Source: an uncultured Chloroflexia bacterium (GTDB taxonomy: Bacteria > Chloroflexota > Limnocylindria > QHBO01). Taken from it: a DNA stretch of 64,000 nucleotides. The position numbers were made by a program, and so were the translations under genes. The notes under the pieces are model-generated. The model was not told the DNA's origin and did no database searches. It saw nothing but the letters and a program-made list of their open reading frames with translations. Shown here in pieces: positions 48,934-49,990 of this stretch. The stretch spans positions 46,744-110,743 of the forward strand of contig CAVZCE010000015.1 of assembly GCA_963773695.1 (NCBI GenBank). Reading direction: 5' to 3'. Position 1 is the first letter of the stretch. Each line of letters opens with the position of its first letter.

Positions 48934-49990
48934 CAGATCCGGGGCCAGCGATGCCCCGGCATCAGCGCCGAGGCGCTGGGTGGTCTTCGCCAGCACCGCT
49001 GACAACCTCCTCGCCGACGACGCCATCGGCGTCAGCGACGTCTTCGTCCATGACCGGCTGACCGGCATCACCGAGCGCCTCGAGAGTGAGCTCCACCGGG
49101 GCCGAGGCCAATGGGGACAGCGACGGTGCCGCCATCAGCGCTGGCGGCCGCTGCGTCGTCTTCCGCTCCGGTGCCACCAATCTCGTGTCGGGCGACACCA
49201 ACGGGGTCAGTGACGTCTTCGTCCGTGACCGCGCCACCGGGACTACCACTAGGTTCAGCCTGGCCGACGATGGATCGCAGGCTTCGGGCGCCAGCGACGC
49301 ATGAACCATCAGCGCCGACGGCCGCTACGTGGCATTCTTTCGGGCGCCACCAACTTCGTGCGCGGCGTCACCAACGGAGCCTCCGATGCTTCGTGCGCGA
49401 TCGGCTGTCCGGTACTATCCAGGCGGATGGTCGGCCGACTCAGTGGAGTCGCTGGCACGAGGGCGAACGCGACCTGCCATAACAGCCGATCCTGAGCTCC
49501 GACCGGGACTTCCTCTGGCAGGCCGCCGACGTCGTTCTGGCAATACGATGCGCTGTTGCCGCCGTCTTCGCCGGGACGTCTCGGCCGGTATCACCAGCCG
49601 GGTCTCGGTCGATTCGTCCGAGGCGCAGGCCAACGGCGCCAGCGGCGCTCCGGCCACCAGCGCCGACGGTCGCTACGTGGTCTTCCGCTCCGACGCCACC
49701 AACCTCGTCAGCGGCGACACCAACGGTGTCTCTGACGTCTTTGTCCGCGACCTGACCGCCGGCGACACCAGCCGCGCCTCGGTCGATTCGTCTGAGGCGC
49801 AGGCCAACGGCGCAAGCGACGCACCAACCATCAGTGCCGACGGCGGCCTGGTGGGCTTCGTCTCGGATGCCACTAACCTAGTGTCCGGCGACACGAACGG
49901 GTTTGCCGACGTCTTCGTCCGCGACCTGACCGCCGGCACCACCAGCCGCGCGTCGGTTGATGGCTCAGGCACCCAGGCCGACGGCGCTAG
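48934..49990 (+). pseudogene. Decayed PD40/TolB-like beta-propeller repeat block within the rhs locus; multiple frame changes and an internal stop
   Basis: The repeat motif …SADGRYVVFRSDATNLVSGDTNGVSDVFVRD… is found in three different frames (ORFs 48272-49213, 49086-49304, 49329-…); a TGA at 49302; a garbled repeat at 49305-49560. Confidence 0.55.

Follow-up and report, generated by a model that had tools for sequence, protein, structure and literature searches.

Remains of a PD40 propeller within the YD shell of an Rhs toxin gene: a disrupted copy, probably of composite origin, on a tRNA-Pro island

The rhs locus and its tRNA-Pro island

The 64-kb stretch of DNA analyzed here (the window) contains a 14.8-kb island that is flanked by tRNA-Pro sequence and holds a whole rhs locus (Table 1). 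The 44-bp repeats at its borders match perfectly; there were two matches in the window and none in 100 shuffles. The island has a G+C content of 69.3%, compared with 72.5–72.8% in its flanks. The tyrosine integrase at its right end is 46% identical to the integrase that adjoins an orphan rhs cassette (P0029) in contig L001. The IS256-family transposase gene is split such that positions 208–378 of the Transposase_mut profile match 53684–54517 and positions 17–169 match 56478–57107. The reverse transcriptase/maturase of the intervening group II intron is frameshifted, with RVT_1 and GIIM in two frames, and Rfam Intron_gpII matched 54408–54506 on the minus strand. A comparison of the region near 51300–51800 with 58850–59400 gave no second att repeat.

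Table 1. Features of the island and its rhs locus, in window coordinates
Feature	Position	Strand	Remarks
44-bp direct repeat, left copy	44206..44249	+	Positions -4 to +40 of tRNA-Pro; left island border
Main rhs gene, intact 5' part	44625..47636	+	Hydrophobic N-terminus, DUF6531 (about 45438–45659), YD-repeat shell
PD40 unit 1, first 22 residues (RASLASDGSQATGAGSSGASDA)	47637..47702	+	Split from the rest of the unit by inserted lectin-like domain
Concanavalin-A-like (jelly-roll lectin/glucanase fold) domain, copy 1	47679..48305	+	Nested in PD40 blade 1
Lectin-like domain, tandem duplicate	48306..48931	+	626 nt, about 99% identical to copy 1; repeat spacing 626/627
PD40 unit 1, remainder	48926..49075	+	Frame 1; profile positions 8–58, E 2.4e-13
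PD40 unit 2, intact	49086..49250	+	Frame 2; profile E 1.5e-25; best match is unit 2 of relatives
PD40 unit 3	49251..49419	+	Runs through frames 2, 1, and 0; TGA and two 1-nt deletions
Damaged 3' fragment of immunity-type small membrane-protein gene ("immX")	49406..49570	+	In place of unit 4
Unit tail and three PD40 units	49571..50115	+	49599–49772 (profile E 1.7e-25), 49773–49946 (3.4e-25), 49947–50115 (1e-10)
PD40-to-YD junction	50116..50244	+	Two YD repeats with Cys..Cys loop; alignment to P0243, P0124, P0029, and P0070
Last YD repeats and Rhs-associated core, cassette A	50245..50936	+	TIGR03696 and Pfam RHS_repeat
Toxin domain A, C-terminal, glycine-rich	50937..51368	+	Open frame to TAG 51366–51368
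73-aa ORF, two hydrophobic helices	51378..51599	+	Candidate immunity gene for toxin A, from position alone
PD40 remnant, head of orphan B (..AVPFRSDPTNLLSGDMHASSD)	51607..51678	+	Profile E 0.004, positions 23–46; joined straight to YAYDDADELTT
Orphan cassette B	51679..52490	+	YD repeats, Rhs core, P0070-type toxin; truncated near 52490
Remnant homologous to Replic_Relax region of L001 element	52717..53615		82% nt identity to L001 4437–5334
IS256-family (Mutator) transposase gene, halved by group II intron	53684..57107	-	Transposase_mut, RVT_1, GIIM, Rfam Intron_gpII
Tyrosine integrase, right island end	57978..58934	-	Pfam Phage_integrase 4.5e-24 and SAM-like N-terminal domain
44-bp repeat, right copy (59037–59080), within intact tRNA-Pro(GGG) (59041–59117)	59037..59117	+	ARAGORN; Rfam tRNA 65.4 bits

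The main rhs region (44253–48523) matched Pfam RHS_repeat (2e-99, in 16 stretches), DUF6531 (1.8e-21), and TIGR01643 (6e-84). The product P0121 is 100% identical to the window over the intact 5' part of the gene, where the G+C content of third codon positions (GC3) is 0.92, and the N-terminus, judged by eye, resembles a signal peptide. Pfam and NCBIfam scans of 44253–48523 and 44625–47636 gave no PAAR or VgrG-binding region; an SpvB domain and an integrin-like propeller were likewise not found, as Pfam gives only RHS_repeat and DUF6531 in the main ORF. Cassette A (49571–51368) was defined to begin with the fifth PD40 unit and to end at the toxin stop. Its core scores 72.1 bits with TIGR03696 (cut-off 32.5; profile positions 1–75 of 76) and contains DPTGLYHLRARQYDPSTGRF at 50772–50831 and, before the toxin, the cleavage-type motif NPVRYTDPSGRF (PxxxxDPxG type) at 50901–50936. 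Toxin domain A, in which GC3 falls to 0.66, had no match in Pfam or NCBIfam and is similar in type to the C-terminus of P0243. The 73-aa ORF that follows was without a family match and is also called in L003, a separately assembled contig with a variant of the locus.

The PD40 repeats were located with a profile made from the PD40 units of intact relatives, with which all six frames of the window were scanned. The sole matches were the remnant at the head of orphan B and, at 48926–50115, six units with a period of 174 nt spread over three reading frames, in line with the approximately six motifs of the initial annotation. The first 22 residues of unit 1, which gave a weak match at 47637–47684, align with the "RASTDSSGVQGNG.." that opens the PD40 array of three intact relatives (P0124, P0125, and P0243). 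A frameshift-aware alignment places a +1 frameshift at about 49076–49085, after unit 1. Unit 3 is matched in three pieces (49251–49337, 49340–49387, and 49390–49419, in frames 2, 1, and 0) with 1-nt deletions at about 49339 and 49389, and the in-frame TGA noted previously lies at 49302–49304 in frame 2. At the DNA level, unit 3 aligns to unit 3 of L004 and L005, with z-scores of 18–19 against PD40 DNA. The last unit is divided into 49947–50003 and 49999–50115 (frames 2 and 0) by a +1 frameshift at about 50004. The two units before it are identical to each other at 47 of 58 residues, and neither is clearly orthologous to unit 5 or 6 of the relatives; Pfam PD40 scores 26.7 bits on 49560–49989 (cut-off 20.9). 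The GC3 signal switches frame at about 48500, 49050, 49950, and 50100, and is absent at 49260–49540.

PD40 unit 1 is interrupted by a domain with a predicted concanavalin-A-like fold, followed by its own tandem duplicate. Copy 1 was modeled by AlphaFold2 with a pLDDT of 73 and a pTM of 0.75, and Foldseek matched the domain to the C-terminal sandwich of GH43, GH16 glucanases, legume lectins, and CBM66 (E 4e-8 to 1e-5). A Pfam search with the domain gave no match, and six weak homologues were found; the intact PD40-bearing relatives are without the nested domain. In the duplicate, a 1-nt deletion at about 48522 moves the frame from 2 to 1.

Intact relatives with a propeller in the shell

Intact proteins of the same architecture were found in related bacteria, as the initial annotation had proposed to search for. 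P0124 (1974 aa), P0125 (1709 aa), and P0243 (1853 aa) each consist of one uninterrupted polypeptide in which DUF6531, the YD shell, seven PD40 units, further YD repeats, the Rhs core, and the toxin follow in this order, and the PD40 region is exactly 402 aa long in each. Pfam PD40 scores 46–53 bits in P0123, P0124, and P0125, and P0256 and P0392 are additional representatives with internal PD40. The architecture had been called unusual, and this holds: PD40 occurs in eight of the 120 best Rhs relatives, internally in only about four of those eight. The propeller insertion is clean and occupies one YD hairpin, where relatives without an array have seven residues; the insertion point lies between "..LDPAGNRTAMTTR" and "YDxLDRLTxAC" and is flanked on each side by shell. 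In P0147, the PD40 array is located two YD repeats further on. Domains of the fn3 and LamG types stand at roughly comparable positions in other family members.

These relatives also bear on whether a PD40 gene and a distinct rhs gene had been mistaken for one. The most numerous matches to the repeats are indeed stand-alone "TolB family" PD40 proteins, but at least three uninterrupted fusion proteins come from independent metagenomes, and the insertion point is inside a YD hairpin with shell on either side. The reading of a single fused gene is thereby upheld on sequence grounds, and we regard the two-gene reading, which we give next to no weight, as already refuted by the intact relatives. In a genome-collection scan for the PD40-YD junction, almost only PD40-only or YD-only loci were recovered, all from distantly related genomes, the best YD match being to a Thermoleophilia genome (45%). 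Neither L012 nor L072 proved to be an Rhs locus, and L063 holds a fragment of an Rhs gene headed by LamG. A literature search for Rhs proteins with PD40 returned nothing relevant, and a survey of polymorphic toxins treats beta-propeller repeats in general terms only, in addition to the integrin-like propeller of TcdB (PMC3482391).

The window itself keeps only six recognizable units, and the closed propeller was modeled on the relative P0124. The AlphaFold2 model of its PD40 segment (pLDDT 81.7, pTM 0.85) has 28 strands, or seven times four, and Foldseek placed TolB at the top of its matches (E 1.6e-13), along with the seven-bladed propellers of S9 peptidases. A complete, seven-bladed, TolB-like PD40 propeller would occupy one beta-hairpin of the YD shell, with about 240 residues between it and the Rhs core. 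Its host clade would consist of DUF6531-type Rhs toxins with signal-peptide-like N-termini from what appear to be high-GC Gram-positive soil bacteria.

Decay, foreign DNA, and the origin of the array

The rhs gene was suspected to be decayed, and the copy in the window is disrupted. The single uninterrupted frame from N-terminus to toxin that is present in P0124, P0125, and P0243 is absent here. Besides the TGA at 49302, the frameshift-aware alignment to P0243 places frameshifts at about 49085, 49339, 49389, 49427, 50004, and 50129, and the duplicated lectin-like domain contains its 1-nt deletion; in all, at least eight frame-breaking lesions lie in the locus between 48522 and 50144. The lesion in the PD40-to-YD junction is a +2 frameshift at about 50129–50144 that is common to L003, which has the identical TCTGCAGCATCAGAC. 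A 71-nt tandem duplication at 50073–50208 was rejected as the cause of this frame change, as both YD motifs are present there in intact relatives and the frame moves by +2 within 17 nt.

Part of the array is foreign. The stretch 49305–49560 had been described as a scrambled repeat, which is correct for 49305–49419, the frameshifted unit 3. Most of the stretch is foreign DNA, a damaged piece of an immunity-type gene at 49406–49570. This segment matches the 3' end of a 160-aa ORF in L003 (457–614) at 90% identity, with eight insertions, two deletions, and two substitutions (10 gaps), and is 73% identical to L002 12297–12426, within a homologous ORF. The proteins encoded by the two ORFs are 77% identical without gaps, and the L003 ORF shows coding GC3. 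Ten indels with only two substitutions are odd for natural decay and more like consensus error, which counts against our best explanation. The fragment is bordered by microhomologies (TGTCCGG on the left, CGTCTTCG on the right). A decayed PD40 unit 4 at 49397–49570 was rejected in view of the match to the L002/L003 gene, a profile scan without PD40 signal in any frame of 49420–49598, and z-scores of this stretch against the PD40 unit DNA of relatives that stay at shuffle level (1–3, compared with 18–36 for true units). The idea that the consensus had blended PD40 and immunity-type sequence into a mosaic unit 3 was also rejected: upstream of 49406, the window resembles L003 only to the degree seen in shuffles, and the alignment of unit 3 to relatives is clean.

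The lesions could instead be artefacts of assembly, the organism having an intact gene and most of the frameshifts, including the state of 49305–49570, being consensus errors from two mixed strains. Several observations point this way. L003 is a variant haplotype of the locus, with an IS3 insertion and without 49571–50131, and the sample from which it comes also includes a 0.2–1 Mb contig that encodes the same 415-aa orphan ORF and is most likely the one to which the window belongs. Indels dominate the difference in 49406–49570. The contig_N type of naming suggests a Flye long-read metagenome assembly, and Danish soil genomes with the same contig naming, to which this sample may be linked, are Nanopore-only assemblies by Flye plus Medaka (PMC12313526). 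Genes are split into several ORFs in sister contigs, both an ordinary one (Carboxyl_trans in three ORFs in L002) and the orthologous rhs gene (four ORFs in L086), and some frameshifts in such assemblies may therefore be artefacts. Against this, six upstream housekeeping genes (AlaS, AspS, Dxs, RecN, RelA, and Der) are full length as single ORFs when compared with full-length models, and more than 12 kb of such genes is free of frameshifts. The window and L003, which were assembled separately, are 100% identical across 2,604 nt, and they have the frameshifts at about 50129 and 52334 in common. Base-calling errors do not produce lesions such as the substitution that created TGA or the exchange of a segment for sequence from another gene, the lesion contexts are not homopolymers (the CCCC at 52334 excepted), and unit 3, with just two 1-nt deletions, is no mosaic of two haplotypes. 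The neighboring mobile-element genes of the island are degraded as well. Since at least eight lesions fall in this locus while the six checked housekeeping genes are full length, genuine decay is likelier than sequencing error, and we consider an artefact of strain mixing rather unlikely.

The best explanation as a whole, to which we assign a probability of roughly 0.65, is that the locus holds the remains of a seven-bladed propeller in a dead copy whose array is composite. Units 1–3 probably continue the main gene. Unit 3 would be followed by part of the immunity gene that originally stood behind the toxin of the main gene itself, and the last three PD40 units would head a displaced cassette comprising the core, toxin A, and its candidate immunity gene, with a second decayed orphan next to it. 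The stretch 49571–50115, which is missing from L003, is probably the head of cassette A. The PD40 units, last YD repeats, and core, being conserved between copies, would provide homology for the swapping of toxin cassettes; here, illegitimate joins would have destroyed the gene. The fragment replaces almost exactly one unit length, and the window is collinear with P0243 over 1,200 nt, so that a composite origin must treat the matching length as coincidence.

That same match in length suggests another origin, in which the gene was always continuous and a double template switch at TGTCCGG and CGTCTTCG overwrote its unit 4 with about 165 nt copied from the immunity gene close by. The insert is almost exactly one unit long, the total length equals seven units, and there are microhomologies at both borders. 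In L003, however, the immunity-type gene is complete and immediately precedes the same cassette A, the arrangement expected if the sequence from 49571 onward began as a downstream cassette, and the near-duplicate units at 49599–49946 are without the distinctive features that units 5 and 6 have in all relatives. An internal patch thus appears doubtful, and a composite array is preferred.

The orphan cassette downstream had been described as headed by the same PD40-to-YD junction and as a product of its duplication. The PD40 remnant at its head is real, with a DNA z-score of 4–4.5 against PD40 units and 14 of 23 residues (counted by eye) identical to the unit at 49599–49772, but the YD repeat that follows it is not the one that follows PD40 in cassette A. 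There, the last PD40 motif and YAYDDADELTT are about 53 residues apart, a distance filled by two YD repeats with the Cys loop; orphan B lacks this stretch. Orphan B is 100% identical in L003; its core scores 59.8 bits with TIGR03696, and alignment to P0070 reveals a frameshift at 52334 in its toxin. A local duplication of the junction from the upstream gene would account for the remnant and for the 88–90% nucleotide identity of 51677–52285 to 50245–50852. The homology, however, starts only at 50245/51677 and the sequences diverge after 52285/50852, the junctions differ by about 53 residues, and the core and toxin of orphan B resemble P0070, unlike the toxin of cassette A. In the intact relative P0147, PD40 is joined at the orphan-type position, two repeats further on. 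Local duplication is therefore improbable. Import or recombination would fit the sequences better, because the core and toxin are P0070-like and the orphan lies beside remnants of an integrase element related to L001, which has its own PD40-headed cassette next to its integrase (P0029). P0029 and P0070 are both cassettes that start inside a PD40 array without an upstream shell. P0241 was rejected as a third such orphan, contig L086 showing that it is one piece of the full gene split into four ORFs, and no sequence common to the upstream flanks was found among the three orphan heads compared.

Known systems and a proposed role for the propeller

The locus belongs among the Rhs/YD-repeat polymorphic toxins (T6SS-linked in Proteobacteria, Sec-exported and WapA-type in Gram-positives), with which it has in common the YD shell, a core with a DPxG cleavage-type motif, a putative variable toxin at the C-terminus with a small gene behind it, and orphan cassettes that have the core as well, in keeping with the general scheme of PMC8636562 and PMC3482391 (see also PMC3150448). 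In the Rhs family generally, the C-terminal toxin is enclosed by the YD shell and cleaved off by the core (PMC8636562). The present locus differs in the whole seven-bladed PD40 propeller in one shell hairpin near the C-terminal end and, for the copy in the window, in the lectin-like domain nested in blade 1 and in being a pseudogene; unlike T6SS Rhs effectors, its main ORF has no PAAR or VgrG domain by Pfam. The TcB-TcC cocoon of Tc/ABC toxins likewise combines a YD shell and a beta-propeller in one polypeptide (PMC8636562, PMC11067744), but the TcB propeller is described as integrin-like and coupled to an SpvB domain (PMC3482391), and it is part of the N-terminal plug and is described as essential for opening of the shell (PMC8636562). 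The propeller described here is of the PD40/TolB type and precedes the C-terminal core, and no SpvB domain was detected by Pfam. Teneurins also have a YD shell with a beta-propeller (PMC8636562), and Pfam TEN_YD-shell gave weak matches in the window; they are, however, eukaryotic, and their propeller is N-terminal to the shell and part of the plug rather than a PD40 array in a hairpin.

The same repeat sequence and predicted fold link the array to TolB and other PD40-family propellers, single units being 55–60% identical to stand-alone "TolB family" proteins. The TolB propeller has six blades, whereas this one would have seven, is without the TolB N-terminal domain, and is embedded in a toxin shell instead of being a periplasmic Tol-Pal component. 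The island, in turn, resembles tRNA-integrated islands and the integrative elements of actinomycetes, such as pSAM2 of Streptomyces, which targets a tRNA-Pro gene; the features in common are the tRNA-derived perfect 44-bp repeats, a tyrosine integrase beside the tRNA gene, lower G+C, and a Replic_Relax-type remnant. It differs from them in its repeat, which spans the 5' part of the tRNA as far as the anticodon loop, and in carrying an rhs toxin locus; in addition, no transfer genes were recognized on the island, and the element looks degraded.

From the N-terminus as read by eye, the intact Rhs-PD40 protein is probably exported via Sec. For the clade, we infer that the propeller would lie outside the shell and serve as a binding module for the envelope of the target cell, here together with the lectin-like domain in blade 1. 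A broader and more speculative proposal, which we hold only tentatively, is that this clade of Gram-positive Rhs toxins may have made a hairpin close to the C-terminal end of its YD shell into a docking site for interchangeable external binding modules, here a seven-bladed PD40 propeller that may in turn accommodate a lectin domain, and that the PD40 DNA may double as a recombination handle for swapping toxin cassettes from tRNA-targeting integrative elements into the resident gene.

The gene in the window is without functional importance of its own because it is a pseudogene. The locus offers a compact example of toxin-locus turnover, in which a putatively mobile island lies at a tRNA gene and cassettes appear to have been displaced, joined illegitimately, and left to decay. 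If the intact relatives are functional, the Rhs shell tolerates a 400-residue propeller and a nested domain in a single hairpin beside the C-terminal plug, and this hairpin is a possible site for engineering binding specificity. Such tolerance would also be relevant to the poorly understood way in which the Sec-exported Rhs toxins of Gram-positive soil bacteria recognize their targets.

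A propeller within the Rhs shell

PD40 (TolB-like beta-propeller) repeats were located with a profile built from the 58-residue units of intact relatives and run on all six frames of the entire window, which matched only six units within 48926-50115 and a short remnant at 51607-51678; an intact pair of units exceeds the Pfam PD40 threshold. The window is 72% G+C, and third-position G+C (GC3) allows reading frames to be traced. By this measure the coding frame begins to switch at about 48500 (frame 2 to 1 near 48500, 1 to 2 near 49050), the coding signal is gone at 49260-49540, and it resumes in frame 2 at 49560-49900, in frame 0 at 49920-50080 and in frame 2 again from 50100. 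A TGA at 49302-49304 is in frame. Given the profile scan, the Pfam match, the in-frame TGA and the frame changes, the description in the initial annotation of six repeats spread over three frames and broken by a stop codon is correct, far beyond chance.

The placement of a PD40 propeller inside an Rhs protein, proposed at the same time, is likewise real and conserved. Searching for intact fusions with the N-terminal 1,211 residues recovered the window's own product and two uninterrupted close relatives, P0124 (1974 aa) and P0125 (1709 aa); a third, P0243 (1853 aa), was reached via the cluster of P0123. All three share the order N-terminal variable domain, DUF6531, YD shell, PD40 region, YD repeats and toxin. 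Their PD40 region comprises exactly 402 residues in seven units and is followed by 'HGALAATT.Y.YDA..RLT.AC.D.ACA..L.YTYDPVGNRL' and then more YD repeats, with 'DPTGLYHLRARQYDP' between these later repeats and the toxin. The genes come from two JGI metagenomes, in which their contigs measure 106 kb and 927 kb, with small ORFs after each gene. Because members without PD40 have 7 residues where the array fills 415 columns of an alignment on the core (a spot flanked by '..LDPAGNRTAMTTR' and 'YDxLDRLTxAC'), the propeller is a clean insertion in a single hairpin that lies between successive YD repeats. In the AlphaFold2 model of the P0124 segment (pLDDT 81.7, pTM 0.85), the strands form seven sets of four, and the model matches TolB and seven-bladed S9 peptidase propellers.

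PD40 was found in 8 of the 120 best Rhs relatives. It occupies the same internal site in P0123/P0243, P0124 and P0125, is N-terminal in P0160 and lies elsewhere in P0157, P0234 and P0235. The array of P0147 (residues about 1010-1430) sits two YD repeats further on, past a Cys-rich loop, and is joined directly to 'AYDAADRITTVT', which makes this a second, independent position of the array. Two additional internal-PD40 Rhs proteins, P0256 and P0392, were retrieved from 1.84 billion cluster representatives with P0029 as the query, and other family members carry fn3, LamG, PA14, discoidin or beta-helix domains, part of them internal. A literature search found no description of PD40 within an Rhs shell. 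The YD-shell propellers known in TcB and teneurins are located at the N-terminal plug (PMC8636562), whereas that of P0124, P0125 and P0243 is in an internal shell hairpin.

Lesions and composition of the window's array

Features of the rhs locus and its surroundings (window coordinates unless a related contig is named)
Feature	Position	Strand	Remarks
Long ORF	44253-48890 (public call P0121 from 44625)	+	DUF6531 and 16 RHS repeats
Lectin-like domain, tandem copies	47679-48305; 48306-48931	+	627/626 nt, about 99% identical
Small hydrophobic protein gene	L003 137-619; L002 12197-12442; window 49406-49570		After glycine-rich toxin tail
Cassette A parts	Core 50245-50936; toxin A to 51368; 73-aa candidate immunity ORF 51378-51599
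Orphan B	51601 to about 52490	+	PD40 remnant head, then P0070-like core and toxin
L001-homologous stretches	52717-53615; 57204-57929
IS256-family transposase halves	C-terminal 53684-54517; N-terminal 56478-57107	-	Split by group II intron
Tyrosine integrase	57978-58934	-
tRNA-Pro(GGG)	59041-59117		Contains right repeat copy

A frameshift-aware alignment to P0243 placed frameshifts at about 49085 (+1), 49339, 49389, 49427, 50004 (+1) and 50129 (+2), in addition to the TGA. PD40 unit 1 is interrupted behind its first 22 residues (47637-47702) by a 209-residue lectin-like domain that is absent from the intact relatives, and the first frame change arises because the second copy of this domain lost one C. 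Pfam does not recognise the domain, and a collection of 5.8 billion proteins yielded just six weak homologues; its model (pLDDT 73) is a concanavalin-A-like jelly roll, close in fold to lectins, GH16 glucanases and CBM66.

A scrambled repeat had been proposed at 49305-49560. This holds for unit 3 (49251-49419), a frameshifted repeat that matches unit 3 of the related contigs L004 and L005 base for base save two 1-nt deletions and the TGA, but not for about 49406-49570, where the profile scan found no PD40 signal in any frame and the likeness of the DNA to PD40 units is no better than that of shuffles. That segment matches the 3' end of a 160-aa ORF at 90% identity. The ORF belongs to L003, a 5.4-kb contig that has a variant haplotype of the locus and elsewhere agrees with the window at 98-100% identity. 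Because L002 encodes a gap-free homologue (77% identical to the L003 protein) and the GC3 of the L003 ORF is that of normal coding sequence, the ORF is a real gene, of immunity type, for a small hydrophobic protein just behind the toxin tail. The conserved protein, which falls in no Pfam family, is probably an immunity protein. Its complete gene in L003 lies directly 5' of cassette A (49571-51368 in the window), and the window fragment is bordered by the microhomologies TGTCCGG and CGTCTTCG.

The array is thus probably composite: units 1-3 would belong to the main gene, the next segment would be a remnant of the immunity gene that served its former toxin, and the last three units would be the head of a displaced cassette A. 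The two full units of cassette A have 47 of 58 residues in common and do not show the features by which units 5 and 6 stand out in all relatives. The patch at unit 4 could alternatively have been produced by a double template switch inside one gene, and the fragment is nearly exactly one unit long, so that the window and P0243 are still collinear, which counts against a composite array. Toxin A and the ORF behind it (50937-51599 region) are a glycine-rich sequence with no family match and a 73-aa product with two hydrophobic helices; such a pair would be in keeping with a toxin that acts on membranes and an immunity protein that resides in one.

We put the probability that the damage to this copy is real decay at roughly two in three. 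Upstream, AlaS, AspS, Dxs, RecN, RelA and Der are each encoded at full length by a single ORF; the window and L003 are identical over 2,604 nt, and both have the frameshifts near 50129 and 52334; the indels lie outside homopolymers, with the sole exception of CCCC at 52334; and among the lesions are a substitution that made a stop codon and a structural replacement. If the frameshifts were instead sequencing or assembly artefacts, this would fit the ten indels against two substitutions between the fragment and L003, and the contig names, which point to long-read assembly with Flye. Danish soil genomes whose contigs are named alike, and to which the present sample may be linked, were assembled from Nanopore reads only with Flye and Medaka (PMC12313526). 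Genes are also broken in sister contigs (a carboxyltransferase in three ORFs, L002 905-2890; the orthologous rhs gene in four, L086 6176-11731), a warning that frameshifts in such assemblies can be artefacts. L003 carries an IS3-family element (1597-2777) within toxin A (window about 51023-51038) and is missing window 49571-50131. Another contig of the L003 sample (0.2-1 Mb) encodes the 415-aa orphan ORF of the window and is most likely the one to which the window belongs, so two versions of the locus co-exist in that sample.

Orphan B and the tRNA island

The initial annotation suggested a duplication of the upstream PD40-to-YD junction as the origin of orphan B. The PD40 remnant at its head is genuine (profile E 0.004; DNA z 4-4.5), but the junction is a different one: 53 residues between PD40 and 'YAYDDADELTT' in cassette A are absent from orphan B, and DNA homology between the two begins only at 50245 and 51677, respectively. 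The array is attached at a later repeat, as in intact P0147, and the core and toxin are P0070-like, truncated and frameshifted at 52334. In L001 (86-6900), the PD40-headed cassette P0029 sits between a tyrosine integrase (46% identical to that of the window) and a Replic_Relax gene, and the gene order is permuted relative to the end of the island in the window, which suggests that toxin cassettes move on integrative elements. P0029 and P0070 both begin within a PD40 array, with no shell 5'. Considering the differing junction, the P0147-type join, the P0070-like toxin, the L001 homology and these cassette heads, import or recombination is a more likely origin of orphan B than local duplication.

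A perfect 44-bp direct repeat (44206-44249 and 59037-59080), equivalent to positions -4 to +40 of tRNA-Pro(GGG) and with zero such repeats expected by chance, encloses 14,787 bp of 69.3% G+C versus 72.5-72.8% in the flanks. This island contains the entire rhs locus, the split transposase gene and an integrase adjoining the tRNA. The group II intron in the transposase has its Rfam domain at 54408-54506 and a reverse transcriptase/maturase spread over two frames. Fragments resembling the 3' half of tRNA-Pro adjoin intact Rhs-PD40 genes in L004 (6451-6490) and L005 (16315-16354), and L086 has a tRNA 3'-half copy at about 16134-16208; integrase genes lie next to these in L004 and L086. The Rhs-PD40 genes of relatives may also reside on tRNA-targeted islands. 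Outside the island, on the + strand, Rfam recognises a c-di-GMP-II-GCG riboswitch aptamer at 43120-43203 (56 bits against a gathering score of 47.9). It occupies the 5' end of ORF 43102-44061, whose translation, judged by eye, is a trypsin-like serine protease with a coding start suggested by GC3 near 43330.

Proposed function

Overall, what had been observed in the sequence was confirmed in part, and its interpretation was supported in part. In the Rhs family generally, the toxin is enclosed by the shell and cleaved by the core (PMC8636562). Pfam and NCBIfam scans of the main rhs gene found no PAAR or SpvB domain, and its N-terminus, read by eye, points to Sec export. External binding would be the role of both the propeller and the lectin-like domain, and recombination would use the conserved DNA of PD40, YD repeats and core as its handle.
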